A stretch of 18,144 bases of DNA from a virus (Duplodnaviria > Heunggongvirae > Uroviricota > Caudoviricetes): IMG/VR virus record IMGVR_UViG_3300029843_000306. One strand, given 5' to 3'. The translations under genes were made by a program, and so were the position numbers. A model generated the notes under the pieces. The model was given only the letters and a program-made list of their open reading frames with translations. It was not told where the DNA came from and made no database searches. Positions 1,239 to 18,144 of this stretch are shown here, piece by piece (position 1 is the stretch's first letter; each line of letters begins with the position of its first letter).

Positions 1239-1814
1239 CTACGGCAGTGCTGGCCATTCAATATCCTGTGCAGTTGACGTATCAACACGGTTCAGCAATA
1301 CCCGATACTTTTTCCATGCTTCCAGCAACGAGATTTCTTCCTCCGTTGCAATTTCCAGATCTGCAGCATCCTGAAGCGGCGCAATATGCTCACTGGCTAC
1401 CTGCATCAGGTTGTTTTTTGTTTCTTCCGCCTCCCGGATCCGGAACAGTTTTTCTGCTTCCGTATCCTTCACCCAGGCTGTGCCGTTCCACTTCTGAAAC
1501 TCCCCTTCCGGCGATAACCAGGTAACATTTTCCGGTAACGGACCGAGTTCAGAAATAAATAACGCGTCGCCGGAAGCCACGTCATAAACCGTTTTACCCC
1601 GATGATCTTCAACGAGATGCCACGATGACTCATCACTGTTGAAAACAGCCACGAAGCCAGCCGGAATATCTGGCGGTGCAATATCGGTACTGTTTGCTGG
1701 CAGACCTGTATGAGGCGGAATATATGCATCACCTTCACCAATAAATTCATTAGTTCCGGCCAGCAGATTATAAATTTTTATGGTCCGTGGTTGTTCACTC
1801 ATTCTGAATGCCAT
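1239..1814 (-). CDS. tfaQ: Tail fibre assembly protein (Tfa)
   Basis: 191 aa; sequence recognised as lambdoid Tfa; its ATG overlaps the stf stop (TAATG) at 1812-1816, the usual stf-tfa coupling. Confidence 0.9.
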
Positions 1815-2726: not shown

Positions 2727-3877
<1,151 letters not shown>

Positions 3878-3899
3878 TGTTCATTCCACGGCCAAAAAC

Positions 3900-4075
3900 A
3901 GAGAAAGGAAACGACAGAGGCCCAAAAGCTCGTTTTCAGCACCTGTCGTTTCCTTTCTTTTCAGGGGGTATTTTAAATAAAAACATTAAGTTACGACGAA
4001 GAAGAACGGAAATGCCTTAAACCGGAAAATTTTCATAAATAGCGAAAACCCGCGAGGTCGCCGCCCCGTAACCTG
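3900..4075 (-). other. cos site: cosN cohesive end (GGGCGGCGACCT, complement of 4055-4066) with the flanking cosB/cosQ-like region
   Basis: Minus-strand sequence ACGGGGCGGCGACCTCGCGGGTTTTCGCTATTTATGAAAATTTTCCGGTTTAAGGC… sits directly upstream of Nu1 and matches the lambda left end as I recall it. Confidence 0.8.
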
Positions 4076-4265
4076 TCGGATCGCCGGAAAGGACCCGCAA
4101 AATGATAATAATTATCATCTGCATGTCACAACGTGCATCTACGCCATCAAACCACGTCAAATAATCAATTATGACGCAGGTATCATATTAATTGATCTGC
4201 ATCAACTTAACGTAAAAACAACTTCAGACAATACAAATCAGCGACACTGAATACGGGGCAACCTC

Positions 4266-4499
4266 ATGTCAACGAAGAACAGAACCCGCAGAACAACAAC
4301 CCGCAACATCCGCTTTCCTAACCAAATGATTGAACAAATTAACATCGCTCTTGAGCAAAAAGGGTCCGGGAATTTCTCAGCCTGGGTCATTGAAGCCTGC
4401 CGCCGGAGACTGTGCTCAGAAAAAAGAGTTTCTTCTGAAGCAAACAAAGAAAAGAGTGACATTACTGAATTGCTCAGAAAACAGGTCAGACCAGATTGA
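4266..4499 (+). CDS. ynfO: Small putative ribbon-helix-helix DNA-binding protein
   Basis: 77 aa; N-terminal basic stretch, then a beta-strand/helix/GSG-turn/helix pattern (RNIRFPNQMIEQINIALEQKGSGNFSAWVIEACRRRL) typical of Arc/CopG folds; fold is inferred from sequence pattern. Confidence 0.65.
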   Translation: MSTKNRTRRTTTRNIRFPNQMIEQINIALEQKGSGNFSAWVIEACRRRLCSEKRVSSEANKEKSDITELLRKQVRPD

Positions 4500-4556
4500 A
4501 GCAATTTAGATAATCGTGCAGACTACGCCCCCTCATATCACATGGAAGGTTTATCT

Positions 4557-4967
4557 ATGGATCAGGTAGTCATTTTTAAACAAATATTTGATAAAGTTCG
4601 AAACGATTTAAACTATCAATGGTTTTATTCTGAGCTAAAACGTCACAATGTCTCACATTACATTTACTATTTAGCCACAGAGAATGTTCATATTGTATTA
4701 AAAAATGATAATACAGTGTTATTAAAGGGCCTAAAAAACATTGTGTCTGTCAAATTTTCAAAGGATAGGCATCTTATAGAAACGACCTCTAATAAGCTGA
4801 AATCCAGAGAGATCACATTTCAGGAATACAGAAGAAACCTTGCTAAAGCAGGAGTTTTTCGGTGGGTTACAAATATCCACGAACAAAAAAGATATTACTA
4901 TACCTTTGATAATTCATTACTATTTACTGAAAGCATCCAGAAAACTACACAGATCTTACCACGCTAA
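4557..4967 (+). CDS. ydfO: DUF1398-family prophage protein
   Basis: 136 aa from the ATG at 4557 (GGAAGG Shine-Dalgarno upstream); sequence recognised as YdfO; the track ORF starts 5 codons earlier. Confidence 0.8.
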
Positions 4968-4975
4968 ACCATAAC

Positions 4976-5015
4976 GTCCGGCTTCTCTCACTCCTGAGCC
5001 GGACTGCATTGGTTT
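4976..5015 (+). terminator. Candidate hairpin terminator after ydfO
   Basis: 8-bp stem GTCCGGCT (4976-4983) / AGCCGGAC (4997-5004) followed by a moderately T-rich tract. Confidence 0.35.
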
Positions 5016-5118
5016 AATAAAAACCATCAACAATTGTGATTTAGATATTCGGAACCATTCAAATATAACAAAACCCCGTAAAAACGAGGTTTATGGATAA
5101 ATTTTATTATTGAATACA

Positions 5119-5292
5119 TCAGATTAAATTAATCTTGACATCATAGCTTTCAAGACCCGTCATTTTTTCCCGTGCGGTAAACTGAATACTGGTAACTTCT
5201 TTCCCGGTCTTTTTCTTAAGTTCAATAATTTTTTTTGTTATATATTCAGAAATATCTGCTTCTGCTTTTGTTTTTAAGTTTTCAATATTCAT
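5119..5292 (-). CDS. gnsB: GnsA/GnsB-family small protein
   Basis: 57-codon ORF absent from the track (under 60 aa), translated by hand: MNIENLKTKAEADISEYITKKIIELKKKTGKEVTSIQFTAREKMTGLESYDVKINLI; AGGA Shine-Dalgarno before the ATG at 5292; Gns-like C-terminus. Confidence 0.7.
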   Translation of the reverse strand: MNIENLKTKAEADISEYITKKIIELKKKTGKEVTSIQFTAREKMTGLESYDVKINLI

Positions 5293-5463
5293 CATTTCCT
5301 CTTTTAGTCTGTTATGACTTTCCAGTTACACAGTAAGTCGATTATATGGTGCAAACGTGTAAAAGATAAGATGAAACATCGCAATAATCAACATACGATA
5401 GTCTAAATTTTACACAAACAGACAAAGAGAATTTTCCTGAATTATCAATGCAATAGCATCAAA

Positions 5464-5619
5464 TCAACTCAAGAGCCTTATTGCTGCTTCCAGAATTTCT
5501 TCTGAAGTAACATGTCGATCCGCGGCTACATAAATGACTTTATGATCTCCGGTCAGAGATGGAAACCCTGCGGCCATTACAGTAAGGTGTGTTTTTTCGC
5601 CATTTGGATATTCACGCAT
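5464..5619 (-). CDS. ynfN: Small prophage protein at the K-12 ynfN position (51 aa; possible N-terminal extension to ATG 5694)
   Basis: ORF 5464..5736 in the track; the 51-aa version from ATG 5619 matches the K-12 YnfN length and position (between gnsB and cspI); start choice uncertain. Confidence 0.5.
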   Translation of the reverse strand: MREYPNGEKTHLTVMAAGFPSLTGDHKVIYVAADRHVTSEEILEAAIRLLS

Positions 5620-5740
5620 GATGGTGTTAACTCCAGTCATCGCTGGCACTACCACTGCTGGTTCAGAGTTAAAAAAAACTATGATTTTTTTCATGATGTT
5701 ACCGTAGTATGTGAGTATCCATCGAATAGACACCAAGCAA

Positions 5741-5766
5741 AAAAGCTCCCGAAGGAGCCTTCATTT
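5741..5766 (-). terminator. Rho-independent terminator (UUCG-loop hairpin plus U-tract)
   Basis: Minus strand reads GCUCC-UUCG-GGAGC followed by UUUUUUGC; downstream of cspI and upstream of ynfN. Confidence 0.6.
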
Positions 5767-5965
5767 TCACTTTTTTAAATCCAACGACAGACGGCTGGCA
5801 TTTAAGTATTGTGAAATATTATCAAATGTAATCATCATTGATTTACAAAAGATACATTTTGCCCCGAAAGGATTCATGTCAGAAACATCAAAAGATGATG
5901 TTCTATACTGGGAACCATGACAACACGGGCATCTAAAGTGAATATGGTTTGTAATATTGTCTACC

Positions 5966-6178
5966 TCAAAGCGCCACTACATGAACAGCGGCAGGACCTT
6001 TAGGTCCGTTCTCAATACCAAATTCAACTTCCTGATTCTCAGTTAATGTTTTGAAATCGTTGCTCTGAATTGCTGAGAAATGGACAAACACATCTTTGCT
6101 GCCATCTTTCGGCGTGATGAAACCAAAACCTTTTTCAGGGTTAAACCATTTCACTAAACCAGTCATTTTGTTAGACAT
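5966..6178 (-). CDS. cspI: Cold-shock protein, CspA family
   Basis: 70 aa; RNP1/RNP2 motifs (KGFGFI, VFVHF); sequence recognised as CspI; long AT-rich 5' leader ending AAAGGTAATAATTATG. Confidence 0.9.
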
Positions 6179-6540
6179 AATTATTACCTTTTGAAGAAAT
6201 TAGCCCTTGGGCAGAATGGTCCGAAAAAAAATATCAGAGAGAAAAACCAACAAGGAAATCTCAAGAGGTACAAATAATAAAATTATAACAATGACTGCTT
6301 CAGATAAATTTGTAACAAACCAGAACACCATTAACGCATGATTAACCACCCATAGCAAGGATTACTTTTGTAAAGAAAAACACAGCAATGAAAGAATAGC
6401 TTTATTTATTAATAAAACGTGTCATTCTGATTAAGACCTTTTATCTTACCCTTAAGATTTCAGGAATTTTGGCTCATGGAAGAGTCCTTTTTATTTAAAT
6501 TTTACATTCCGCGATGTAAATGTTCCGATTTAATATTACC

Positions 6541-7564
<1,024 letters not shown>

Positions 7565-7568
<4 letters not shown>

Positions 7569-7876
7569 AGATATTTATGATGAGGACGCTCGTGCTTATT
7601 GGCAGGATTTTCAATCTTAAAGGAGTACTGATGCTGCAGATAAGACTCAACTTTTTCTGACAATTTTTCTGCTACTTCCAGGAAGACTTGCCGGACGCTC
7701 CTTCTGGCTGCTGCCTCATAAAACTCCAGCGCAGCTCCTTCAACACGGTCCATGGCGACATCCAGGTCAAAAATTTCACCGTCAAAGCGTTCTTTGTCCT
7801 GTAAGGCTACAGTTACCGTAACTTTATTCTCAAAATTACGGACTCCTTTCACAACCAGTTCATAGTCTTGAGTCAT
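7565..7876 (-). CDS. ydfR: Prophage protein YdfR (DUF1327) inserted between holin and endolysin
   Basis: 103 aa; sequence recognised as YdfR; stop overlaps the rrrQ start. Confidence 0.75.
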
Positions 7877-7880
7877 TGGA

Positions 7881-8096
7881 TTACTCTCCTCTCGCAGCCT
7901 TACGCCTGTCTTCTTTAATCTTGAAATAAAGATTTGTCAGATACGTCAGCAGGCCAAAAACCAGGCTACCCAGCACACCGATTGCAGCCCACTGTGACGG
8001 AGTTACTTTATCGAGTAACTGCAATGCCCAGAAACCAGCATTACCCGCCGATGTGCCATAGGCAACACCTGTTGTTAACTTATCCATTGATTTCAT
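7881..8096 (-). CDS. essQ: Class II holin (phage 21 S-like pinholin) with dual-start motif
   Basis: 71 aa from ATG 8096 (GGTGAGGA Shine-Dalgarno upstream); begins M-K-S-M, giving Met1/Met4 starts as in S21; two TM segments; the 96-aa track ORF from 8171 is rejected as the start. Confidence 0.85.
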
Positions 8097-8315
8097 ATCC
8101 TCACCCCGATGTACACGGATGGTGCAATATGTTTGAAAAGATCGGAGTCTACGGGGTAGTTTTGACAGCACACGTTGTTCTCAACGGCGCTAAAAAAACA
8201 TACACATTAAAAATGTGGGTAATTATTTTGAAAGAAAGTCATATATAAAATAATAATACGAGAAATGTTTTCATATTTAGTGTACTGTATACGGCCATTT
8301 ATACAGGAAAAGCCT

Positions 8316-8486
8316 ATGTCAGAACGTAAAAACTCAAAATCACGCCGTAATTATCTCGTTAAATGTTCCTGCCCAAACTGCACCCAAGAGTCAGAACACA
8401 GTTTTTCAAGAGTACAAAAAGGTGCCCTTTTGATCTGCCCTCATTGCAACAAAGTATTCCAGACAAATCTTAAAGCTGTAGCCTGA
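8316..8486 (+). CDS. ynfU: Small zinc-ribbon-like protein (two CxxC pairs)
   Basis: 56 aa from ATG 8316 (AGGAAAAG upstream); CSCPNC…CPHC motifs; track ORF 8265..8486 has an implausible N-terminal extension. Confidence 0.65.
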   Translation: MSERKNSKSRRNYLVKCSCPNCTQESEHSFSRVQKGALLICPHCNKVFQTNLKAVA

Positions 8487-8545
8487 TTGATTTTATTAGT
8501 AACAAGTATTTTTTATATTTTAATAATATATTTAAAGCAGATAAT

Positions 8546-8570
8546 AAAAAACCCGCCTGAGCGGGTTTGA
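8546..8570 (-). terminator. Rho-independent terminator between cspB and the lysis genes
   Basis: Minus strand reads AAACCCGC-UCAG-GCGGGUUU followed by UUUUUUAUUAU. Confidence 0.7.
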
Positions 8571-8849
8571 GATTGTGGTGCTTTTTGTGGGAGTCATCCA
8601 CTTACGCACTTTGTTTTGCCATGCCAGCAGTTAGCTTCTGCTGTAAAACTATTCATGCAGCAAACCTGCACTTCACCACAATGGTTAGCATACTTTTCCT
8701 GATTAAGATTTTGCCAAATATGCTAGCCATTGTTTCATGTATTGGACCTCCTTACTTTTTATTAAAGAGATCCAATATTCACTACTCTGTCCGTATCTCT
8801 ACTCAGGCATCAGCCTTCTTCGTTATCGTATACAGACGAGCGATGAATT

Positions 8850-9065
8850 TTAATCAGTAATGATGACATTTGCTGCTGCAGGACCTTTAGCACCACTCTC
8901 TATAGAGAAGGTAACCTTTTGACCTTCAAATAAGGTTCGATAATTATCATTCTGAATCGCAGAAAAATGCACAAACACATCTTTACTACCATCAACAGGA
9001 GAAATAAAGCCGAAACCTTTATCAGCGTTAAACCATTTTACTAAACCAGTCATTTTATTTGACAT
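8850..9065 (-). CDS. cspB: Cold-shock protein, CspA family
   Basis: 71 aa; sequence recognised as CspB; RNP motifs present. Confidence 0.9.
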
Positions 9066-9365
9066 TCTACATTCCTTAACTTGAGCCTTTCGGCATAAAT
9101 GGTTTGCATAACAGAAACGACTTCGTACTTAATTGGAGAGACTCAAAGAAGGAATAAGTGAATAACACCTGAAATGAGAACTGCTTTAGTAAACTACTTC
9201 GTATATCGTCTGTTCTTCAAACCGACGCAATCATTAACGCATAGTTGAACATATGAAGCAATGTTTATTTTAGACATCCAGCCATCTTCAACCCCATCAA
9301 AAAACTATAGCTTTCTTCAGGAACGTGTGTATAGTGCGCCAAGTTATCAGTATTAAGGAATTTTT

Positions 9366-9578
9366 TTGTCCCGTAAAATGACAGGAATTGTCAAAACCTT
9401 TGACGGCAAAAGCGGCAAGGGTCTTATCACCCCATCCGATGGTCGTATCGATGTCCAGCTTCATGTTTCAGCGCTCAATCTCCGCGATGCAGAAGAAATT
9501 ACCACCGGATTACGCGTGGAATTTTGCCGGATAAATGGTCTGCGTGGCCCTTCAGCTGCCAATGTTTACCTTTCATGA
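9366..9578 (+). CDS. cspF: Cold-shock-domain protein, divergent CspA-family member
   Basis: 70 aa; divergent from cspB; degenerate RNP1 (KSGKGLI); sequence recognised as CspF. Confidence 0.85.
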
Positions 9579-9632
9579 GCTATATTAAAGCTTTAATTTC
9601 AGGCCCCATCGGATCACACATGGAGAGTTTTT

Positions 9633-9722
9633 ATGAATAACCCCGTCTGTCTTGATGACTGGTTGATTGGCTTTAAAAGCTTATGCTGTACTTTGGCCGT
9701 AATAGCTCTGCTAATAATATAA
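9633..9722 (+). CDS. Candidate 29-aa hydrophobic small protein ([29 protein letters not shown])
   Basis: ATG at 9633 preceded by GGAGAG at about 7 nt; absent from the ORF track (too short); single predicted TM-like segment; no homology evidence. Confidence 0.3.
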
Positions 9723-9867
9723 TAAGCAGACTCATTGTGTTTAGGGACATTGTACTGGAAGAAAACATTTTAAACATCAGGCAAATAACCAAGTCACCAG
9801 CTAAATAATAAGTTAACAGACATGAGTCCCGGGATGAGATTCAACATTACCATTGCCCCATTTAAAG

Positions 9868-9900
9868 CACAAAACCCGCTCATCAGCGGGTTTTCTACTT
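9868..9900. terminator. Hairpin terminator, candidate tR' of the late operon (also usable as a cspF terminator on the + strand)
   Basis: AAACCCGCT-CATC-AGCGGGTTT (9872-9893) with T-rich flanks on both strands; lies about 40-60 nt downstream of the candidate late promoter. Confidence 0.5.
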
Positions 9901-9934
9901 TTTCTTAACGTCGGGTATACAAAGCCCATCGTTG

Positions 9935-9970
9935 AAAAAATTTTATCCATATTTTTTGAAAAATGCAAAC
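9935..9970 (-). promoter_or_regulatory. Candidate late promoter pR' (sigma-70) just downstream of Q
   Basis: Minus strand -35 TTGCAT (complement of 9963-9968), 17-nt spacer, -10 TAAAAT (complement of 9940-9945); position matches lambdoid pR'/qut. Confidence 0.5.
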
Positions 9971-9999
9971 ATCATGTCGCCATCTTCAGCAAAAATCAT

Positions 10000-10752
10000 T
10001 TATCTCGTCACCTTCCTCAATTGCGCTTCCGCGTATGCTTCTTCCTGCCAGCACTTTGTTACCAGTTTACCAATGACGTCCGCATACCCCTTATACCACT
10101 GATAATCGGTCAGGTCTGGTACCAGCTTCTGGACATGACGTCGTGCCAGCGTGGTCGGTAAACGACTAAACCGGTTTCCATTACAACGCCCACAAATCTT
10201 ATATACCGGTACGCCATGAAACCGGGTTCTTTTTTCATCCAGAACAATCCCTTTACCCTTACACCCTCTGCACGCTGTGCTGGCTTCGCCCTTACCATGG
10301 CAATGCTGACATAGTTCCTTCACCCATTCTTCCTTGATTACAGATTCCCCGCGTCTGTAGTGTTTCACCACTTCGCGCAATACATTATAAAATCCCGTAC
10401 CTGAACAATGCTCACAGCGAGCCTTACTTGCCGCAGACCTGGAGTAATCAGCAAAGGCAAAACTCACGAGGTAAGGAATAATCTGTAACCGGATTTCTTC
10501 ACTCAATTTGTTCAATGTCGGGTTATCCAGTGCCATCGCGTAATTTAGCAGGCCTTCAATCGCAAACTGAGGGTCCTGAACACCAACTTTTGCCAGAAAT
10601 AAGGCCAACCCAAGTGGTGCTTTCGACTGCACCATCCCCTGCGCTGCCATTACATCCGTAATTGTTAAACAACCGGTGCCTGTCGCTGGAGCGTCATCGC
10701 TCAATTTTGGAGATTTTGGGGAGTAATATTTTGGTAAGGCTTCAAGGTTCAT
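10000..10752 (-). CDS. quuQ: Late-gene antitermination protein Q (phage 21/82-type)
   Basis: 250 aa from ATG 10752; multiple CxxC zinc-binding motifs (CEHCSGTG, CQHCHGKG, CRGCKGKG, CGRCNG); sequence recognised as QuuQ; track ORF has a 10-codon extension. Confidence 0.9.
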   Translation of the reverse strand: MNLEALPKYYSPKSPKLSDDAPATGTGCLTITDVMAAQGMVQSKAPLGLALFLAKVGVQDPQFAIEGLLNYAMALDNPTLNKLSEEIRLQIIPYLVSFAFADYSRSAASKARCEHCSGTGFYNVLREVVKHYRRGESVIKEEWVKELCQHCHGKGEASTACRGCKGKGIVLDEKRTRFHGVPVYKICGRCNGNRFSRLPTTLARRHVQKLVPDLTDYQWYKGYADVIGKLVTKCWQEEAYAEAQLRKVTR

Positions 10753-10765
10753 GCTCGTTCTCCAC

Positions 10766-11815
10766 TTACGCCAGTACGCCAATTGTCAGCGCGCGATCGA
10801 TAAAACGAAATATCAGCTCCAGTTGGGAGCCATACTTATCTTCAAATGCCACTGTATCCGTATGCAGCTCGTTGTGATGCTTTCTGCACAAAGGCAACAC
10901 AAAGAGATCATGTGCTTTTGTTCCCATTCCGCCCTGCCCGTGACCAATCAGATGATGCGGATCGTCGGCTGGCATACCGCAGCAAGCACACGGCTGTGTC
11001 TTAACCCAACGTGTGTATTTCTCCTTAACCCAGCGGCGACGTTTAGGCAGCTTCATGAAAGATTCCGGAGACTCTGGATCAACGGTGATGCTTACCACCG
11101 TCTTTTCCTGTGGTGATTTTTGTTGCTGGTGGGCGTAAGGCAACGGTGCAAGATTTTTTGTGCGTTGTTTCAATATGCTGGTGGCGGTCTGCTCTCCCGG
11201 TACGATGTCGCTTTCGCGGTACACCGAGCAGATTTTTTCCGCTGGTAATCCCAGCGAACGACGCGATACAGCCTCAGGTAGTGCATCCACCACCTGATTG
11301 CAGACCGCCCACCAGGATAATTCAGCCAAAGATAATTCCCGCTCCTGCGTACCGCTTATTGCGTGACGGATGACGTCAATCACCCATGCTGTCAGATTTT
11401 GTTGAGCAAGCAGCTCCAGTGATTCCGATGTCTGGTCACGCAGTTGGTTGTCGCAGTGCCAGCACAACACCATTGCGCCGGTACCATAACGGTGAATGAC
11501 TGTTTCAGTGTGATGGTAATCGCCATTAGGCCACTGGCAGGATGTAACATGACGTAATAGCCAGTCGGACAATGCGCCAACGCCGCCAGCAGCACGAATC
11601 ACCCGTTCGTTACTAAAAAACGGCAGCAATGTTTTGTCTTCCGCCAGCGGCTGGCGAACGGCAGGAACGACTCCGGATGGCAGATTACGCATGCTTTTTG
11701 GTTCCGGTTCCACCAGCACTCGAGGATTATGAAATATCTGTATGGATTCACGGCCCGGCTTAAGGACCACCAGCCCAAGCTCAGGCACCAGAACAGGTCT
11801 AAGTAATACCCGCAC
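10766..11815 (-). CDS. ydfU: DUF968-family protein with HNH-like nuclease motif
   Basis: 349 aa from GTG 11815 (track ORF extends to 11854); C-terminal HNH-like motif CACCGMPADDPHHLIGHGQGG…CRKHHNELH. Confidence 0.75.
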   Translation of the reverse strand: MRVLLRPVLVPELGLVVLKPGRESIQIFHNPRVLVEPEPKSMRNLPSGVVPAVRQPLAEDKTLLPFFSNERVIRAAGGVGALSDWLLRHVTSCQWPNGDYHHTETVIHRYGTGAMVLCWHCDNQLRDQTSESLELLAQQNLTAWVIDVIRHAISGTQERELSLAELSWWAVCNQVVDALPEAVSRRSLGLPAEKICSVYRESDIVPGEQTATSILKQRTKNLAPLPYAHQQQKSPQEKTVVSITVDPESPESFMKLPKRRRWVKEKYTRWVKTQPCACCGMPADDPHHLIGHGQGGMGTKAHDLFVLPLCRKHHNELHTDTVAFEDKYGSQLELIFRFIDRALTIGVLA

Positions 11816-11816
11816 G

Positions 11817-12095
11817 TTACCTCCAGATCCGTTGCTGGAAAGTGCGGGACGCACGTGGTGGGCGTTCGGAATAAGGCAGCCTGACAGAGATTATCCAGTG
11901 CCGATAGTCGAGACTGAGAGCTTTCTTAACCTCGAACCCGCGCCTGCGGTAAGAATGAATCAGCCATTCGGCCTGTTCTGCAGTGCATGGAGGGTGCTGG
12001 AACCATTCAGACTTGAATGCGTGAGAATACCGCCCGTGCGTGCAGGCAAGAACGGGCGAATTATCAGAATTGTAATATTTTGCGTTGCGTGCCAT
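11817..12095 (-). CDS. Hypothetical small protein with Cys/His residues, upstream of and abutting ydfU
   Basis: 92-aa ORF with GGAG Shine-Dalgarno 5 nt before ATG 12095; stop abuts the ydfU start; no family assignment made. Confidence 0.5.
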   Translation of the reverse strand: MARNAKYYNSDNSPVLACTHGRYSHAFKSEWFQHPPCTAEQAEWLIHSYRRRGFEVKKALSLDYRHWIISVRLPYSERPPRASRTFQQRIWR

Positions 12096-12161
12096 CGGTT
12101 TTCTCCGGTGGCACGGTGTTACTCAGCGGGAGTTCAGCCCCGCGCAAGATTGTAGATGAGT

Positions 12162-12413
12162 TTATTCTCCTGAAAAAGCAGAAAAGCCAGCTTTTATTCC
12201 GATCTCTTTCAATGCCTGTAATGAAGTGACAAACTCACCTTCGCGCAAGATAAATCCGTCCGTGACCCGAGCATCCACAAAATTAATTAACGCAGCCCCA
12301 TTCTTTCGCAAACACATAATGCGGTAATGACTAACAAGATTTCCATTTTCAACGCACACAGCATAGAGGCCATCTTCACAAAAAATTTTACGCAGTTCTT
12401 CGATGTTCATCAT
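12162..12413 (-). CDS. rem: Small prophage protein Rem
   Basis: 83 aa; position between ydfU and hokD and length match K-12 rem; sequence identity is from recollection only. Confidence 0.6.
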   Translation of the reverse strand: MMNIEELRKIFCEDGLYAVCVENGNLVSHYRIMCLRKNGAALINFVDARVTDGFILREGEFVTSLQALKEIGIKAGFSAFSGE

Positions 12414-12539
12414 CAGAATCCTTCCGGATAATTAGCTCTCCCCTTTAAGGGACCATCCCTCTTATCCCTGCGCGCTACTTAAGTATTTTTGATTCTATTC
12501 CGGCACCGTCCAGAACTTCAAACGCGTTGAAAATAAAAA

Positions 12540-12565
12540 CAAAAACCCGCCGAAGCGGGTTAAGT
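12540..12565 (-). terminator. Rho-independent terminator of the relB-relE-hokD operon
   Basis: Minus strand reads ACCCGC-UUCG-GCGGGU followed by UUUUGUUUUUAUUUU. Confidence 0.8.
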
Positions 12566-12629
12566 GCGGGTGCGTTGAGGATGCCTGCCACATCAGAGGT
12601 GGCGAGGGATTTCTCCCCCGCCGGGTCTC

Positions 12630-12785
12630 TTACTCCTCAGGTTCGTAAGCTGTGAAGACAGCGACCTCCGTCTGGCCGGTTCGGATTCGTACCTCGCAGA
12701 GGTCTTTCCTCGTTACCAGTGCCGTCACTATGACGGTTAAACAGATGACGATCAGGGCGATTAACATCGCCTTTTGCTGCTTCAT
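12630..12785 (-). CDS. hokD: Hok-family type I toxin (small membrane peptide)
   Basis: 51 aa translated by hand: MKQQKAMLIALIVICLTVIVTALVTRKDLCEVRIRTGQTEVAVFTAYEPEE; absent from the ORF track; downstream of relE as in relBEF. Confidence 0.85.
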   Translation of the reverse strand: MKQQKAMLIALIVICLTVIVTALVTRKDLCEVRIRTGQTEVAVFTAYEPEE

Positions 12786-12856
12786 AGCCTGCTTCTCCTG
12801 TCAACGCAAAGCAGAAGTGTCACCTTCGGTGCGAAACAGAGATGTCATGCTTTGGT

Positions 12857-13144
12857 TCAGAGAATGCGTTTGACCGCCTCGCTATATACTTCCGAGCGTT
12901 CTCTTTTCCCAACAGAAATCACGAAAACGACAACTTTCTCGTCTATAACCTGGTATACAAGGCGATAGCCTGAAGACCGGAGCTTAATCTTGTAACAATC
13001 AGGCATACCACGGAGCTTGTTTGCTTCAATCCGGGGTGACTCAAGTACTTCAACCAGCTTCTTTTTCAACTGTTCACGTACCGTCGAGCCCAGCTTTCGC
13101 CATTCCTTTAGTGCCCGCTCGTCAAAATCCAGAAAATACGCCAT
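12857..13144 (-). CDS. relE: RelE mRNA interferase toxin (type II TA)
   Basis: 95 aa; sequence recognised as RelE; start overlaps the relB stop (ATGA). Confidence 0.95.
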   Translation of the reverse strand: MAYFLDFDERALKEWRKLGSTVREQLKKKLVEVLESPRIEANKLRGMPDCYKIKLRSSGYRLVYQVIDEKVVVFVISVGKRERSEVYSEAVKRIL

Positions 13145-13383
13145 CAGAGTTCATCCAGCGTCACACGTACTGGCTTAGGATTACGAAGCCGTTCTTTCAC
13201 TATCTCCACAAGTTCAGCATCTTCATCACTCAGGAGTGTCTGTTTGAACGGCAAGCGTTCATTGTCAGCGATATACTCGAGCATGAGACGAAGCGCTTCA
13301 GAAGGAGTTACACCCATTTTTTCAAGCGCGGCGTAAGAACGCGCTTTAAGTTCATCGTCAATACGCAGGTTAATGCTACCCAT
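13144..13383 (-). CDS. relB: RelB antitoxin (RHH family)
   Basis: 79 aa; sequence recognised as RelB; AAGAGGTG Shine-Dalgarno upstream. Confidence 0.95.
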   Translation of the reverse strand: MGSINLRIDDELKARSYAALEKMGVTPSEALRLMLEYIADNERLPFKQTLLSDEDAELVEIVKERLRNPKPVRVTLDEL

Positions 13384-13385
13384 GT

Positions 13386-13440
13386 CTTACACCTCTTGTA
13401 ATTACAAATGTCATTACAAGTATCGCACTACAACATGCTT
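13386..13440 (-). promoter_or_regulatory. relBE promoter/operator region (relO-like repeats)
   Basis: Repeated TTGTAAT/TACAAG hexads (CTTGTAATTACAAATGTCATTACAAG on the + strand) directly upstream of relB. Confidence 0.55.
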
Positions 13441-13713
13441 AGGGCAAGTCACGAAGGAAGTCAGAAAGTAGTCGTAAGAACGGTGATCACTGTCCGCTTT
13501 GTGCCAGGAGCAGCCATTGCTAAGTCCATCCTGTATTGTGCAGGTCAGCTCGTTTTTAAAGAGTCCGGCCATCATCTTACTGGTACAGACACCATATACT
13601 TTGTGACGGTCAGGCTACATATGCACAACTCAACTTATTCATCTATTTTTTGCTTTAGCATGTCAGTGTTGCTTTCTCGTCGGCGGGTGAGCGGTGACCT
13701 GACCTGTCGATAA
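13408..13713 (+). CDS. ydfV: Hypothetical ORF at the position of K-12 ydfV (weak coding evidence)
   Basis: 101-aa ORF starting inside the relB operator; no recognisable domain; listed only because the equivalent ORF is annotated in K-12. Confidence 0.25.
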   Translation: MSLQVSHYNMLRASHEGSQKVVVRTVITVRFVPGAAIAKSILYCAGQLVFKESGHHLTGTDTIYFVTVRLHMHNSTYSSIFCFSMSVLLSRRRVSGDLTCR

Positions 13714-13865
13714 AGGAACGTAACACGTTTTATGCAACACCCGCATGCGGCAGAAAATTATTGCCGAACGTTTACCCCTGTCAACAAGCTTTACTTTCTG
13801 AGGCGCGCCAGCCCGCGAGGAAAACAATCTGAACATCAAACAATTAATGACACAAGAAATACGAT

Positions 13866-13892
13866 TAAAGATTTTTTTGTGCATGCCGATAG
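13866..13892 (+). promoter_or_regulatory. Sigma-28 (FliA) class promoter of flxA
   Basis: TAAAGATT (13866-13873), 11-nt spacer, GCCGATAG (13885-13892), against the consensus TAAAGTTT-N11-GCCGATAA; GGAG Shine-Dalgarno and ATG follow. Confidence 0.75.
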
Positions 13893-13915
13893 TGCTTTTT
13901 TAAAAGGAGAAATCT

Positions 13916-14248
13916 ATGTCTGTCACAATTCAGGGAAATACCTCAACCGTTATTTCAAACAACTCCGCCCCGGAAGGAACATCAGAAATAGCCAAAATCA
14001 CAAGACAAATTCAGGTGCTGACTGAAAAGCTTGGGAAAATCTCATCGGAAGAGGGGATGACGACACAGCAGAAAAAAGAAATGGCTGCATTGGTACAGAA
14101 GCAAATTGAAAGCCTCTGGGCTCAACTGGAGCAGTTGTTAAGGCAGCAGGCAGAGAAAAAGAATGAAGACGCGACAGTTCAGCCTGATAAAAAAGAAGAG
14201 AAAAAAGACGATACAAATACCGCTGGCACCATTGATATTTACGTCTAA
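13916..14248 (+). CDS. flxA: FlxA (FliA-regulated protein of unknown function)
   Basis: 110 aa; sequence recognised as FlxA; coiled-coil/charged composition. Confidence 0.9.
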   Translation: MSVTIQGNTSTVISNNSAPEGTSEIAKITRQIQVLTEKLGKISSEEGMTTQQKKEMAALVQKQIESLWAQLEQLLRQQAEKKNEDATVQPDKKEEKKDDTNTAGTIDIYV

Positions 14249-14261
14249 GTGACAGCCGTAT

Positions 14262-14290
14262 TGTGGCCCTCATCGGGCCACTTTTCGCCA
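14262..14290 (+). terminator. Rho-independent terminator after flxA
   Basis: GTGGCCC-TCATC-GGGCCAC followed by TTTTCGCC. Confidence 0.65.
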
Positions 14291-14537
14291 TCAGCCTTTT
14301 CTTTAAAGACATATTATCTTTGTATCATTTCTGATAGTTAACATTACAAGATATAAGTAATGGACGCACTCCCAATTAGTCTATTTAAATCGCCACGAGT
14401 TTAACTGACAACCCATGATCAATTATGAATTGCAACTATTTCTGTAGTCACTTTTGTGGGGACAGTCCACAAAACTGCCAACTTCCGCTTCTTGCTCTTA
14501 GCGGACATTAGCATAGGCTATTTATCCGGAGCTTAAG

Positions 14538-16505
14538 TTGCACGCCATTGGGTGGGTTAAGCATAAATGTATTCCTGGTGCTAAATGGCCCGAAATTCAG
14601 GCAGAGATGCGCATCTGGAAAAAACGTCGCGAAGGTGAACGCAAGGAAACCGGAAAATACACGTCTGTTGTTGATCTCGCCCGCGCCAGAGCCAATCAAC
14701 AGAACACTGAAAATTCAACAGGAAAAATCAGCCCGGTCATTGCTGCCACTCATCGCGAATACAAGCAGACATGGAAAACACTGGATGACGAACTGGCCTA
14801 CGCTCTCTGGCCTGGTGATGTGGATGCCGGAAACATTGACGGCAGCATCCATCGCTGGGCAAAAAATGAAGTTATCGACAACGACCGCGAAGACTGGAAG
14901 CGTATCTCGGCATCAATGCGCAAACAGCCTGATGCCCTTCGCTACGACCGCCAGACTATTTTTGGCCTTGTCCGTGAACGTCCGATCGACATTCACAAAG
15001 ACCCTGTGGCACTGAACAAATACATTACTGAATACCTGACTACAAAGGGCGTGTTTGAAGATGAAGGAAGAAATCAGAGCGCAACTGATACTCTCTCGTC
15101 GCCAGTACCAGAAACTGATGCAGTGGAAACGGCAATTCCGGACAACGAAAAAACCGAATGCAAAGTGGAAGTCGAACCATCTGTAGAGCGTGAAGGGCCG
15201 TTCTACTTCCTCTTCACCGACAAGGATGGCGAAAAATACGGTCGCGCAAACAAACTTTCTGGTCTGGATAAGGCACTGGCTGCAGGGGCTACTGAAATCA
15301 CGAAAGAAGAATATTTCGCCCGCAAAAACGGTACATACTCAGGTTCACAACAAAATACTGGTGCATCTGACACGACCGCACAACCAGAGCCGGTAAAAGT
15401 TACCGCTGACGAAGTAAACAAAATTATGCAGGCAGCCAATATCAGCCAGCCTGACGCCGATAAGTTGCTTGCTGCATCACGTGGTGAATTTATTGAAGGG
15501 ATTAGCGACCCGAATGATCCGAAATGGGTTAAGGGGATCCAGACCCGCGATACTGTGAACCAGAACCAGCAAGAAACGGAACAGAACGACCAGAAAGCGG
15601 AACAAAACAGCCCAAATACGCAACAAAACGAGCCAGAAACGAAACAACCTGAACCAGTAGTGCAACAGGAACCGGAAAAAATCTGCACCGCCTGCGGTCA
15701 GAGCGGTGGTGGCAACTGCCCTGATTGTGGTGCGGTGATGGGCGACGCAACATACCAGGAAACATTCGATGACAAGAACCAGGTTGAAGTTCAGGAAGAC
15801 GATTCGGAGAAAATGGAAGGCGCTGAACATCCACACAAGGAGAATGCTGGCAGCGCTCAGGACCACGCCAGCGATAGTGAAACTGGCGAGATGGCAGATC
15901 CCTTAATTACGGTGAACGGTCATCACGTTATCACATCCACCAGCAGGACTTGTGACCATCTAATGATCGACCTTGAAACCATGGGAAAAAATCCTGATGC
16001 CCCGATTATCTCAATAGGTGCAATATTTTTCGATCCGCAAACCGGAGATATGGGACCGGAATTTAGTAAGACTATCGATCTGGAAACTGCTGGCGGAGTC
16101 ATTGATCGGGACACCATTAAATGGTGGCTTAAGCAATCACGCGAAGCGCAATCTGCCATTATGACCGATGAAATCCCGTTAGATGATGCACTGTTACAAT
16201 TGCGGGAATTTATCGACGAAAACTCCGGTGAATTTTTTGTTCAGGTTTGGGGAAATGGAGCCAACTTCGACAACACGATTTTGCGCCGTTCATACGAACG
16301 GCAGGGGATCCCCTGCCCGTGGCGTTACTACAACGATCGCGATGTACGCACAATCGTTGAGCTGGGAAAAGCCATGGACTTCGATGCCAGAACGGCTATT
16401 CCATTCGAAGGTGAGCGCCATAATGCACTTGATGACGCCCGTTACCAGGCAAAATACGTTTCAGTTATCTGGCAAAAACTGATCCCGAGTCAGGCTGATT
16501 CTTAA
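14538..16505 (+). CDS. Large early-region protein: N-terminal domain of unknown function, disordered acidic/Gln-rich linker, CxxC…CxxC zinc ribbon, C-terminal DEDDh (DnaQ-like) 3'-5' exonuclease domain
   Basis: 655-codon ORF; start is TTG 14538 (GGAG 8 nt upstream) or ATG 14607; C-terminus carries DLETMG, GNGANFD and H-NALDDA motifs of the DEDDh fold; zinc ribbon CTACGQSGGGNCPDCG. Confidence 0.7.
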   Translation: MHAIGWVKHKCIPGAKWPEIQAEMRIWKKRREGERKETGKYTSVVDLARARANQQNTENSTGKISPVIAATHREYKQTWKTLDDELAYALWPGDVDAGNIDGSIHRWAKNEVIDNDREDWKRISASMRKQPDALRYDRQTIFGLVRERPIDIHKDPVALNKYITEYLTTKGVFEDEGRNQSATDTLSSPVPETDAVETAIPDNEKTECKVEVEPSVEREGPFYFLFTDKDGEKYGRANKLSGLDKALAAGATEITKEEYFARKNGTYSGSQQNTGASDTTAQPEPVKVTADEVNKIMQAANISQPDADKLLAASRGEFIEGISDPNDPKWVKGIQTRDTVNQNQQETEQNDQKAEQNSPNTQQNEPETKQPEPVVQQEPEKICTACGQSGGGNCPDCGAVMGDATYQETFDDKNQVEVQEDDSEKMEGAEHPHKENAGSAQDHASDSETGEMADPLITVNGHHVITSTSRTCDHLMIDLETMGKNPDAPIISIGAIFFDPQTGDMGPEFSKTIDLETAGGVIDRDTIKWWLKQSREAQSAIMTDEIPLDDALLQLREFIDENSGEFFVQVWGNGANFDNTILRRSYERQGIPCPWRYYNDRDVRTIVELGKAMDFDARTAIPFEGERHNALDDARYQAKYVSVIWQKLIPSQADS

Positions 16506-16577
16506 TGTTCAACTGTCGCCGGTTGTGACTGGTATTCTGCAACCGGCGCTCGTCTGATGTAAGAGATAAAGAAATCG

Positions 16578-16829
16578 ATGAGCGAAGTAATCATGATTGT
16601 CTCTCCCGGCAAATGGGTATCCGAAGAGCAGTTAATTGCGCTGAAAGGAATAAAAAAAGGTACGTTAAAAAAGGCCCGGGAAAAATCGTTTATGGAAGGA
16701 AGGGAATATAAGCATGTCGCTCATGACGGTATGCCATGGGATAACAGTCCATGCTTTTACAACCTGGAAGAAATTGATCGCTGGATTGAGCGCCAGGCAT
16801 CAGCGAGACCAAGACGTCATCTTACTTGA
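16578..16829 (+). CDS. Excisionase-like / small DNA-binding protein upstream of int
   Basis: 83-aa ORF directly upstream of and co-oriented with the integrase; basic; family assignment is by position and general resemblance only. Confidence 0.5.
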   Translation: MSEVIMIVSPGKWVSEEQLIALKGIKKGTLKKAREKSFMEGREYKHVAHDGMPWDNSPCFYNLEEIDRWIERQASARPRRHLT

Positions 16830-16863
16830 CTAAAAGCCACACTAACTAATGAGAGAAGTTGAA

Positions 16864-18144
16864 ATGAAATATCCGACAGGCGTGGAAAACCATGGAGGGA
16901 AATTACGTATCTGGTTTGTTTATAAAGACGTAAGAGTCAGGGAAAATCTGGGGGTTCCTGACACAGCAAAAAACAGGCGCGTTGCAGGTGAACTACGCTC
17001 CTCTGTTTGTTACGCAATAAAAACTGGTGTTTTCGACTATGCAAAACAGTTTCCCTCCTCACGCAATCTGGAAAAATTTGGTGAGGCCCGACAAGATTTA
17101 ACCATAAAAGAACTGGCTGAAAAATTTCTGGCACTGAAAGAAACTGAAGTCGCCAAAACATCACTCAACACATACCGTGCCGTCATCAAAAATATCCTGA
17201 GCATAATCGGTGAAAAAAATCTTGCCTCATCGATTAATAAAGAAAAATTACTGGAGGTTCGTAAAGAGTTACTGACTGGATACCAGATCCCCAAAAGTAA
17301 CTATATTGTTACACAACCAGGGAGATCGGCTGTAACTGTAAATAATTACATGACAAATCTTAACGCCGTGTTCCAGTTTGGTGTTGATAACGGTTACCTG
17401 GCAGATAATCCGTTTAAGGGGATCTCGCCATTAAAGGAATCAAGAACCATTCCGGATCCTCTTTCGCGGGAAGAATTTATCCGTCTTATCGATGCGTGCA
17501 GAAATCAGCAAGCAAAAAATTTATGGTGTGTTTCTGTTTATACTGGAGTTCGCCCTGGTGAGCTGTGTGCACTTGGATGGGAGGACATAGATCTGAAAAA
17601 TGGAACAATGATGATCAGGAGAAATTTAGCAAAAGACCGTTTCACGGTACCAAAAACACAGGCGGGAACCAATCGGGTCATTCATCTTATTAAGCCAGCA
17701 ATCGACGCTCTCCGGAGTCAGATGACATTAACGAGACTGAGCAAAGAGCATATCATTGATGTTCACCTCAGAGAGTATGGCAGAACAGAAAAACAAAAAT
17801 GCACCTTTGTTTTTCAACCTGAAGTGTCAGCGAGAGTAAAAAATTATGGTGACCATTTTACCGTTGACTCAATAAGGCAGATGTGGGACGCAGCGATAAA
17901 ACGTGCCGGACTCCGCCATCGAAAATCATATCAGTCGAGACATACTTATGCCTGCTGGTCGCTGACAGCTGGTGCTAACCCGGCATTTATAGCAAACCAG
18001 ATGGGCCATGCAGATGCGCAAATGGTATTTCAGGTATACGGAAAATGGATGTCTGAAAACAATAATGCACAGGTAGCTTTGTTAAATACACAGTTAAGCG
18101 AGTTTGCCCCAACCATGCCCCATAACGAAGCAATGAAAAATTAA
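16864..18144 (+). CDS. Tyrosine site-specific integrase (phage integrase family), apparently full length
   Basis: 426 aa from ATG 16864 (track ORF starts at 16849 without a Shine-Dalgarno); C-terminal catalytic motifs R (VYTGVRPGEL), H-x-x-R (SRHTYA) and Y (VYGKW); window ends at its stop codon. Confidence 0.9.
   Translation: MKYPTGVENHGGKLRIWFVYKDVRVRENLGVPDTAKNRRVAGELRSSVCYAIKTGVFDYAKQFPSSRNLEKFGEARQDLTIKELAEKFLALKETEVAKTSLNTYRAVIKNILSIIGEKNLASSINKEKLLEVRKELLTGYQIPKSNYIVTQPGRSAVTVNNYMTNLNAVFQFGVDNGYLADNPFKGISPLKESRTIPDPLSREEFIRLIDACRNQQAKNLWCVSVYTGVRPGELCALGWEDIDLKNGTMMIRRNLAKDRFTVPKTQAGTNRVIHLIKPAIDALRSQMTLTRLSKEHIIDVHLREYGRTEKQKCTFVFQPEVSARVKNYGDHFTVDSIRQMWDAAIKRAGLRHRKSYQSRHTYACWSLTAGANPAFIANQMGHADAQMVFQVYGKWMSENNNAQVALLNTQLSEFAPTMPHNEAMKN

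Follow-up and report, generated by a model that had tools for sequence, protein, structure and literature searches.

In phage lambda, the late promoter pR' lies directly after the antiterminator gene Q and gives a short constitutive RNA that ends at an intrinsic terminator, tR'; the lambda 6S RNA and StxS, the latter reportedly described by Sy and colleagues in 2020, are said to be such pR'-tR' transcripts. Phages of the 933W type carry the stx moron in this part of the genome. Morons are recognized as additional DNA between genes that are neighbours in related phages; they deviate in GC content, have a promoter and a terminator of their own, and are expressed while the prophage is repressed (Juhala/Hendrix; Cumby et al. 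2012, PMC3594210). Here we describe an 18,144-nt stretch of DNA from a virus of the Caudoviricetes (IMG/VR record IMGVR_UViG_3300029843_000306; hereafter the window, in which all positions are counted from the first nucleotide), where the cold-shock genes cspF and cspB and the small gene ynfU lie between Q and the holin gene essQ. The interval of about 8110-9870 is very probably the variable cargo slot of a lambdoid late operon of the type present in the Escherichia coli K-12 prophage Qin, filled by a cold-shock cassette in a standard moron arrangement, and a terminator that works in both directions separates cspB from the lysis genes. Beside this terminator we found a conserved structured RNA, which is the only part of the locus that looks new and which, although located inside E. 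coli K-12, has apparently gone unnoticed.

The cargo slot between Q and essQ

The window carries a copy of Qin: positions 3367-14524 were 99.87% identical over 11.2 kb to the annotated cryptic prophage Qin of MG1655, and megablast searches with positions 7800-10900 returned 100% identity in many E. coli chromosomes and at least 80% coverage in 1,604 of 5,426 complete E. coli genomes. Genes were called from the list of open reading frames (ORFs), the RefSeq annotation of identical or 99.87%-identical DNA, and Pfam searches. Read along the minus strand, the order is Q (ydfT), pR', tR', ynfS and cspF in antisense orientation, cspB, the terminator hairpin, ynfU in antisense orientation, and then essQ-ydfR-rrrQ-rzpQ. 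Q (ydfT/quuQ; 10000-10752, minus strand), a 250-aa late antiterminator with an Antiterm domain (PF03589, E 3.6e-54) and a DnaJ-type CXXCXGXG zinc finger, bears the RefSeq name 'antitermination protein Q'. The cold-shock-domain proteins (CSD, PF00313) are encoded by cspB (8850-9065, minus strand; 71 aa; E 9.8e-32) and cspF (9366-9578, plus strand; E 5.6e-22), both also annotated in RefSeq; ynfU (8316-8486, plus strand) encodes a 56-aa zinc-ribbon protein (YnfU, PF23499, E 3.5e-31); and essQ (7881-8096, minus strand), the first lysis gene, encodes an S21-type holin (Phage_holin_2_1, the P21-type holin family PF04971, E 4.4e-34). The original prediction, made from the sequence alone, had placed ynfU, cspB and cspF between Q and essQ, with cspF antisense to late transcription, and these placements agree with the ORFs, RefSeq and Pfam. 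It had omitted that ynfU is antisense too, and it did not include a fourth small gene, ynfS (9633-9722, plus strand; 29 aa; RefSeq; Pfam YnfS, PF23697), which directly follows cspF on the plus strand and is likewise antisense to late transcription. In K-12 Qin (ydfT/quuQ-cspF-cspB-ynfU-essQ, b1556-b1559, b4776) the element is the same, with unchanged gene order and no difference inside the cassette region; elsewhere, the copy in the window is without ydfW-ydfD (dicC, dicA, dicF, dicB) and IS2E.

The Q stop and the essQ start are 1,903 bp apart, compared with 676 bp in lambda. SfV and phiSTEC1575-Stx2k carry the same Q-pR'-tR' module with about 90% identity, and with both of them the homology breaks off precisely at 9871, the distal foot of tR'. 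Past this point, SfV carries orf47 and orf48, with an annotated terminator immediately ahead of S, and phiSTEC1575-Stx2k carries small ORFs, three tRNAs and stx2A/B. On the holin side, several hundred phage records, mostly of Stx phages, share the module (425 matched the whole query), and homology stops at 8087-8124. These breaks, at 9871 and just upstream of essQ, indicate that the 1.75-kb cassette sits literally in the cargo slot of stx, as had been proposed, and next to the same Q allele. The premise of that proposal, that in lambdoid phages Q and pR' are followed directly by S-R-Rz, was borne out with regard to the extra DNA but was too simple, as lambda has the 6S RNA/tR' and orf-64 in this place and many lambdoid phages carry cargo there.

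The remaining features of morons were observed as well. GC content is 34-38% over 8050-9400 and 9550-10000 (44-47% in cspF), compared with 45-52% in the lysis genes and Q/ydfU. Expression from the prophage is documented by cspB RNA and by two tagged proteins in uninduced K-12, namely YnfU, one of the most strongly expressed among the new small proteins, and YnfS, which was also detected. The cassette's own promoters are represented by hexamers that are consensus matches only, for example TTGAAA-18-AATAAT (10/12 matches in a consensus scan) at 8228-8257 (plus strand) before ynfU, a site that is probably active given the expression of YnfU, and its own terminators are the hairpin at 8549-8568 and, for cspF-ynfS, tR'. 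The arrangement is already known, being annotated K-12 biology and a textbook moron. Literature searches found no prior statement on cold-shock genes as lambdoid morons. The morons of HK97 and HK022 are single genes, whereas the Qin cassette combines three or four transcription units. It resembles phiSTEC1575-Stx2k in the Q allele, in the breakpoint at the foot of tR' and in having its cargo between tR' and an S21-family holin gene. In Stx phages, however, the cargo is co-oriented with late transcription and needs it for high expression, whereas of the three units in Qin two run antisense to it, and cspB is equipped with a cold-regulated promoter and a terminator of its own. In SfV, the different cargo that follows the shared module, orf47 and orf48, is unrelated to that of Qin and co-oriented.

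We found the cassette between Q and the holin gene of five deposited phages (six records), PhiR42_1, HannyBb, PhiR63_1, 2H10 and Tritos, with 96.5-100% identity; one of the five is a species of the International Committee on Taxonomy of Viruses. Its presence at the same place in these phages indicates that it is compatible with a working late operon. In other arrangements, cspF, cspB and ynfU occur together at 65-75% identity beside the integrase gene of phage PHB10 and are also grouped in an Enterobacter chromosomal island, and of the three genes the 108-kb phage Cyrano and related E. coli plasmids have only cspB, accompanied by its leader, 3' region and terminator. The cassette is a horizontally mobile, low-GC unit. 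A ynfU homologue was also observed alone, divergent from an unrelated holin gene, in Klebsiella phage ST13-OXA48phi12.4 (contig L009, 3562-3732), and other homologues (L008, 3313-3477; L177, 1048-1218) lie with cspF and cspB in PHB10 and, in the Enterobacter island, after cspF on the same strand. The recurrence of ynfU in three settings suggests a functional link between the zinc-ribbon protein and the csp pair.

Late promoter, tR' and the hairpin before essQ

Directly after Q, a promoter scan located pR' (9940-9969, minus strand) as TTTGCA (-35, 9969-9964), an 18-nt spacer and TAAAAT (-10, 9945-9940), with a layout as in lambda pR' and with conservation in 2H10, SfV and the Stx2k phage. The 10 nt CAACGATGGG of the start region are identical in lambda, at an equal distance (5 nt) from the -10, and the -10-like element AACGAT in the initial transcribed region (9928-9933, minus strand) is presumably, as in lambda, the sigma-dependent pause and Q-loading signal. 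The start site was mapped by differential RNA sequencing (dRNA-seq) to K-12 position 1642422, which corresponds to window 9933, the first A of AACGAT (Thomason 2015, via the TRS supplement, PMC10687069). It is followed by tR', a bidirectional intrinsic terminator (9860-9899) identified by scanning and folding, with a 10-bp stem at 9871-9894; folding of the 56-nt stretch 9855-9910 gave -23.9 kcal/mol (z -6.2) for the minus strand and -15.1 kcal/mol (z -5.7) for the plus strand, and the equivalent in SfV is annotated 'terminator'.

The in vivo 3' ends considered here are from K-12 at 37 °C without phage induction, and come from a Term-seq study (PMC7815308) and from TRS data of cells in LB (PMC10687069), for which the statistic R equals 1 minus local readthrough. 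At tR', minus-strand RNA ends at 9867 (Term-seq) and at 9860/9861 (TRS, R 0.93-0.96), and plus-strand RNA, assigned to ynfS, ends at 9899 (TRS, R 0.91), so this terminator is bidirectional in vivo as well. The pR'-tR' RNA is 67-74 nt long, and its coverage in the published data exceeded that of the ydfT coding sequence about 200-fold (1.1-2.2 read starts per position, compared with 0.004-0.008). pR' is a constitutive late promoter whose short RNA dies at tR', resembling lambda 6S RNA and StxS in its level well above that of the Q coding sequence in uninduced cells, and tR', not the hairpin after cspB, is the primary barrier that stops pR' transcripts. The original prediction left out tR', the chief block to this RNA. 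The parts of a lambda-type Q module, that is, a Q-family protein, a constitutive promoter after Q with a -10-like element, and a nearby intrinsic terminator, are all found here, and Qin shares with lambda the Pfam family of Q, the promoter position, the CAACGATGGG region and the short constitutive RNA that ends at an intrinsic terminator. It differs in that the short RNA is 194 nt in lambda, in that tR' serves the opposite strand too, and in that the holin gene is preceded by 1.75 kb of cargo containing three further termination or 3'-end sites. An Rfam match to isrK at 9869-9935 scored only 16.6 bits and was not significant.

A second bidirectional intrinsic terminator (8540-8577) lies between cspB and essQ. 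Its stem, at 8549-8568, reads AAACCCGC-UCAG-GCGGGUUU (8 pairs, 5 of them G-C, with the loop UCAG), lies between an A-tract and a U-tract, and has the minus-strand tail UUUUUUAUUAU. The 51-nt stretch 8535-8585 folds at -15.8 kcal/mol on the minus strand (z -4.7; 0/200 shuffles as good) and at -20.1 kcal/mol on the plus strand (z -4.7). A generic terminator scan of the region showed no enrichment (7 found, 4.4 +/- 2.2 expected) and was not used as evidence, so the case for this terminator is built on the quality of the hairpin itself and on the published 3' ends. TRS places a minus-strand terminus at K-12 1641031/1641032 (window 8542/8543; R 0.98-0.99, rank 140 of all tested positions), classed as intergenic and 307 nt past the cspB stop, and a plus-strand terminus at 1641059 (window 8570; R 0.81), and Term-seq has a plus-strand end at 1641060 (window 8571). 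The hairpin is a real terminator that is used from both sides, and local readthrough in the cspB direction is about 1-2% at 37 °C in uninduced cells. Its poor plus-strand tail (UUUGAGAUU) and the R of 0.81, compared with 0.98-0.99, show that it is better built for the direction of cspB and the late operon. A strong terminator had been predicted between cspB and the holin gene, and the hairpin proved to be canonical and active in vivo; high readthrough from cspB independent of Q, which had been named as the contrary outcome, was not what the 37 °C data gave.

The cspB transcript itself begins with a 5' untranslated region (UTR) of the cspA thermoregulator type (9066-9226, minus strand; Rfam RF01766): the match over the cspB mRNA (8834-9226) scored 158.8 bits, compared with a gathering score of 78, and the leader starts at 9226. 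Published K-12 data show a Rho-dependent 3' end inside this leader, at 9145, and a coverage of 6.6-8.2 for the cspB coding sequence, compared with 0.004-0.008 for ydfT, in uninduced cells. The commonest 3' end on the cspB strand is at 8733-8737, 7-11 nt past a long hairpin that folds in the 3' UTR, and has no U-tract; hairpin and end together span 8733-8786 (minus strand). This end was recorded by Term-seq (K-12 1641224/1641226, counts of 0.6-2.5 million; PMC7815308) and by TRS (1641222/1641223, R 0.66-0.74; PMC10687069). Roughly two thirds of the cspB-strand RNA ends at 8733-8737, and the end looks processed or trimmed. Thus, cspB transcription does stop before the lysis genes, as predicted, but its commonest 3' end is not at the terminator hairpin. 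In addition, dRNA-seq shows a transcription start site at 8818 (minus strand), 32 nt past the cspB stop, preceded by TTAAAA-17-TACGAT (8825-8853), which overlaps the stop codon; this site could serve the 3' hairpin and the structured RNA described below as a promoter of their own. An 11-codon ORF at 8738 (MKQWLAYLAKS) with a perfect Shine-Dalgarno sequence was rejected as a gene, being present in the Qin class only and having as its Shine-Dalgarno sequence the 3' arm of the 3'-UTR hairpin, and the idea that cspB is followed by a decayed ynfQ/ymcF homologue, as cspI is by ynfQ, was ruled out by the lack of DNA or tblastn similarity.

A structured RNA downstream of cspB

Next to the terminator hairpin, at a distance of 3 nt, we located a structured RNA of 157 nt (8572-8728, minus strand), delimited by alignments, covariation, the minimum free energy (MFE) fold and a covariance model. 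It consists of a hairpin, P0 (8728-8683), and a four-way junction closed by P1 (8682-8674 with 8580-8572) and bearing the inner hairpins P2, P3 and P4; the junction lengths are 2, 11, 23 and 6 nt, and the P3 loop AAGCUAA and the junction sequence AAAGUGCGUAAG are invariant. Among diverged copies, this block is better conserved than the sequence beside the cspB stop codon. Pattern scans detected it in 170 viral contigs (two overlapping scans) and in 29 species-representative genome contigs, in at least 11 genera (Escherichia, Shigella, Enterobacter, Kluyvera, Kosakonia, Phytobacter, Leclercia, Raoultella, Superficieibacter, Pseudescherichia and Atlantibacter). The distance of the block from a cspB-like gene upstream is 128-221 nt in 25 of the 29 genome contigs; the remaining four are cut at the edge of the locus or have no such gene within reach.

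RNAalifold independently predicted P0 and the four-way junction P1-P4, and the structure covaries strongly across the Enterobacteriaceae. In a curated alignment of 20 sequences (A4), 97.2% of the cells were paired, compared with 28-56% when the partners were slid; 12 of 36 pairs were changed on both sides, compared with 0-3 in the slid controls; and 0/500 shuffles reached the observed values on all five measures. The corresponding figures for a model-based alignment of 45 distinct sequences (A5) were 97.0% of cells paired and 15 of 36 pairs changed on both sides. The G-U pairs indicate that the sense strand of the RNA is that of cspB, and the K-12 sequence alone gave the same MFE fold (z -4.4). 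A covariance model (R1) found exactly one strong copy per locus (99-201 bits), that of the window being at 8552-8746 (153 bits), and a search with it revealed no second copy after cspI or elsewhere in Qin. In Rfam 15, no family matched the RNA at E <= 5; the overlaps at this threshold (Trp_leader, isrK, rsmX and Betaproteobacteria toxic sRNA) were short, scored 16-22 bits, far under the respective gathering scores, and were anchored on the adjacent terminator hairpin.

In the Qin, Cyrano, L108 and Superficieibacter classes, the RNA has a terminator behind it, which the PHB10, Enterobacter and Kluyvera classes lack; in the latter, the RNA extends toward a 75-aa ORF that belongs to no known family. 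Because the terminator is present in only some classes, a terminator-type riboswitch was ruled out. A protein gene in the block was likewise ruled out, as no reading frame is kept among the Qin, Cyrano and PHB10 copies while the helices covary, and so was a tRNA-like element, ARAGORN having returned nothing for the window and the junction lengths being unlike those of tRNA. A possible pairing of the P2 loop GGUUUG with CAAACC of the terminator was seen by eye only, and no claim is made for it. In Raoultella lignicola (contig L171, about 4412-4644), the 8-nt unit CCTGAAAG occurs about seven times inside junction J2/3, and the model score was still 129 bits.

Structured elements and small RNAs derived from 3' UTRs are known in enterobacteria, for example CpxQ, RaiZ and the cspE 3' end. 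The RNA at 8572-8728 resembles small RNAs of this kind in its position, with a 3' end or processing site internal to the mRNA on one side and an intrinsic terminator on the other. They consist of a seed and a terminator, however, whereas this RNA is a four-way junction with long invariant single-stranded junctions and is absent from Rfam. Our literature searches found no mention of a cspB 3'-UTR RNA or of a small RNA in the essQ-cspB gap. We are evenly divided on whether it represents an undescribed class of functional RNA that travels with phage- or island-borne cspB across at least 11 genera of the Enterobacteriaceae. Possible roles include a cis-acting stability or processing element of the cold-shock mRNA, a platform for protein binding, or a regulatory RNA derived from the 3' UTR; of these, the first is our leading guess and the last our second.

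Working of the locus, alternatives and neighbouring genes

The cassette forms two pairs of convergent transcription units, each pair meeting at one bidirectional intrinsic terminator. In the lysogen, as the published K-12 data show, pR' fires constitutively from 9933, its 67-74-nt RNA stopping at tR', and cspF-ynfS ends at the opposite face of tR'; cspB RNA ends mostly at 8733-8737 and the remainder at 8542/8543, ynfU ends at the other face of the hairpin, and Q is essentially silent. With all units stopped by terminators and Q silent, the holin, endolysin and spanin genes receive almost no transcription, despite the strong host-controlled promoters upstream. During lytic growth, Q would load on polymerase paused at the AACGAT element of pR', and the modified polymerase would pass unchecked through tR', through the Rho site within the leader of cspB and through the hairpin at 8549-8568, and thereby reach essQ. 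Such Q-dependent readthrough into essQ is suggested by homology to lambda and by the presence of the cassette in deposited phages.

Several points weigh against this account. Literature searches found no published measurement of Q-dependent readthrough for this element; the in vivo data are all from 37 °C, and cspB transcription rises under cold shock; and CspA-family proteins, as reported by Bae and colleagues in 2000, can weaken intrinsic terminators by antitermination. The prophage in the window is defective, with most structural genes gone and the dicA-dicB region missing, and the late circuit of this particular strain may never fire. Finally, the Term-seq study contains no minus-strand end at the 8549-8568 hairpin (PMC7815308), although TRS ranks that end 140th genome-wide.

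The close spacing of the structured RNA and the hairpin also admits the explanation that the hairpin mainly makes the 3' end of a functional 157-nt RNA, be it part of the cspB 3' UTR or a processed or independent RNA, and that protection of the lysis genes is a by-product. We regard this as possible but somewhat doubtful: the RNA precedes an intrinsic terminator, in settings that lack lysis genes, in four diverged classes (Qin, Cyrano, L108 and Superficieibacter), the minus-strand end is classed as intergenic, and a transcription start site, at 8818, lies inside the cspB 3' UTR, but the copies of the PHB10, Enterobacter and Kluyvera classes have no such terminator, so the hairpin is not an obligatory part of the RNA, and the two roles are not mutually exclusive. 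That the hairpin is a mere shared terminator of the convergent ynfU/cspB pair, of a kind common in the E. coli genome and with no special relation to the late operon, seems to us unlikely. The 3' ends on both strands, the A- and U-tracts flanking the stem and the similar two-way use of tR' are in line with it, but the poor plus-strand tail and the lower plus-strand R point to a hairpin built for the cspB/late direction, and SfV too has a terminator directly before S, after a cargo of its own.

A leak triggered by cold, in which CspA-family proteins including CspB would melt the hairpin, so that cspB transcription enters essQ-rrrQ and couples cold to the lysis genes without Q, is very improbable in our view, even though such proteins are said to be antiterminators at intrinsic terminators, cspB has a cold-inducible leader of the cspA type, and only the hairpin and the antisense ynfU stand between cspB and essQ. 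About 30% of E. coli genomes keep intact lysis ORFs behind the cassette, which argues that cold shock is not lethal, and most cspB RNA ends upstream of the hairpin. We give least credence of all to the notion that the cassette landed in a dead prophage and broke its late operon, leaving a functionless arrangement; Qin is cryptic both in K-12 and in the window, but the identical arrangement occurs in the five deposited phages, the lysis ORFs are all intact, and the slot boundaries are module junctions that SfV and Stx phages use too. A filled cargo slot in a Qin-type late operon is the reading that we prefer.

The late genes ydfU (10766-11815, minus strand; RefSeq, ORF and Pfam checks), upstream of Q, and ydfR, rrrQ (endolysin) and rzpQ/rzoQ (spanins), downstream of essQ (6541-7876, minus strand; Pfam DUF1327, Phage_lysozyme and DUF2514; RefSeq), border the region described, and cspI lies downstream of rzpQ/rzoQ. 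Just after the lysis cassette, at 5650-6550, we observed a second low-GC cold-shock cluster, consisting of cspI, ynfQ, ynfR, ynfN and gnsB; it forms a second moron slot of the same late operon, in which the cspI leader is also of the cspA type (RF01766, 112.8 bits, 5939-6324) and no copy of the cspB 3' RNA is present. At 14517-16985, the window has a 655-aa ydfE-like exonuclease ORF (PF16473) and an integrase ORF, both uninterrupted, unlike in K-12, and at 2770-3366 it has about 600 bp more than K-12, coding for a fragment of the tip-attachment protein J. An Rfam match to IS009, an old small-RNA candidate family, at 1273-1471 (minus strand; 220.9 bits) overlaps coding sequence and falls, by its coordinates, in the tail-fibre gene region (K-12 tfaQ).

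In K-12, reporter constructs are widely placed in the essQ-cspB gap (8097-8849), which serves as a landing pad in the chromosome (PMC2847246, and later work with reporter libraries), and such constructs sit beside a strong two-way terminator, ynfU and the structured RNA. For the biology of prophages, the locus offers a clean example, backed by data, of how a prophage keeps the host-controlled promoters of its cargo from firing the lysis genes. If the RNA downstream of cspB governs how stable a cold-shock message is or how it is processed, or if it has a role in trans, this RNA would be a new element of cold-shock regulation.

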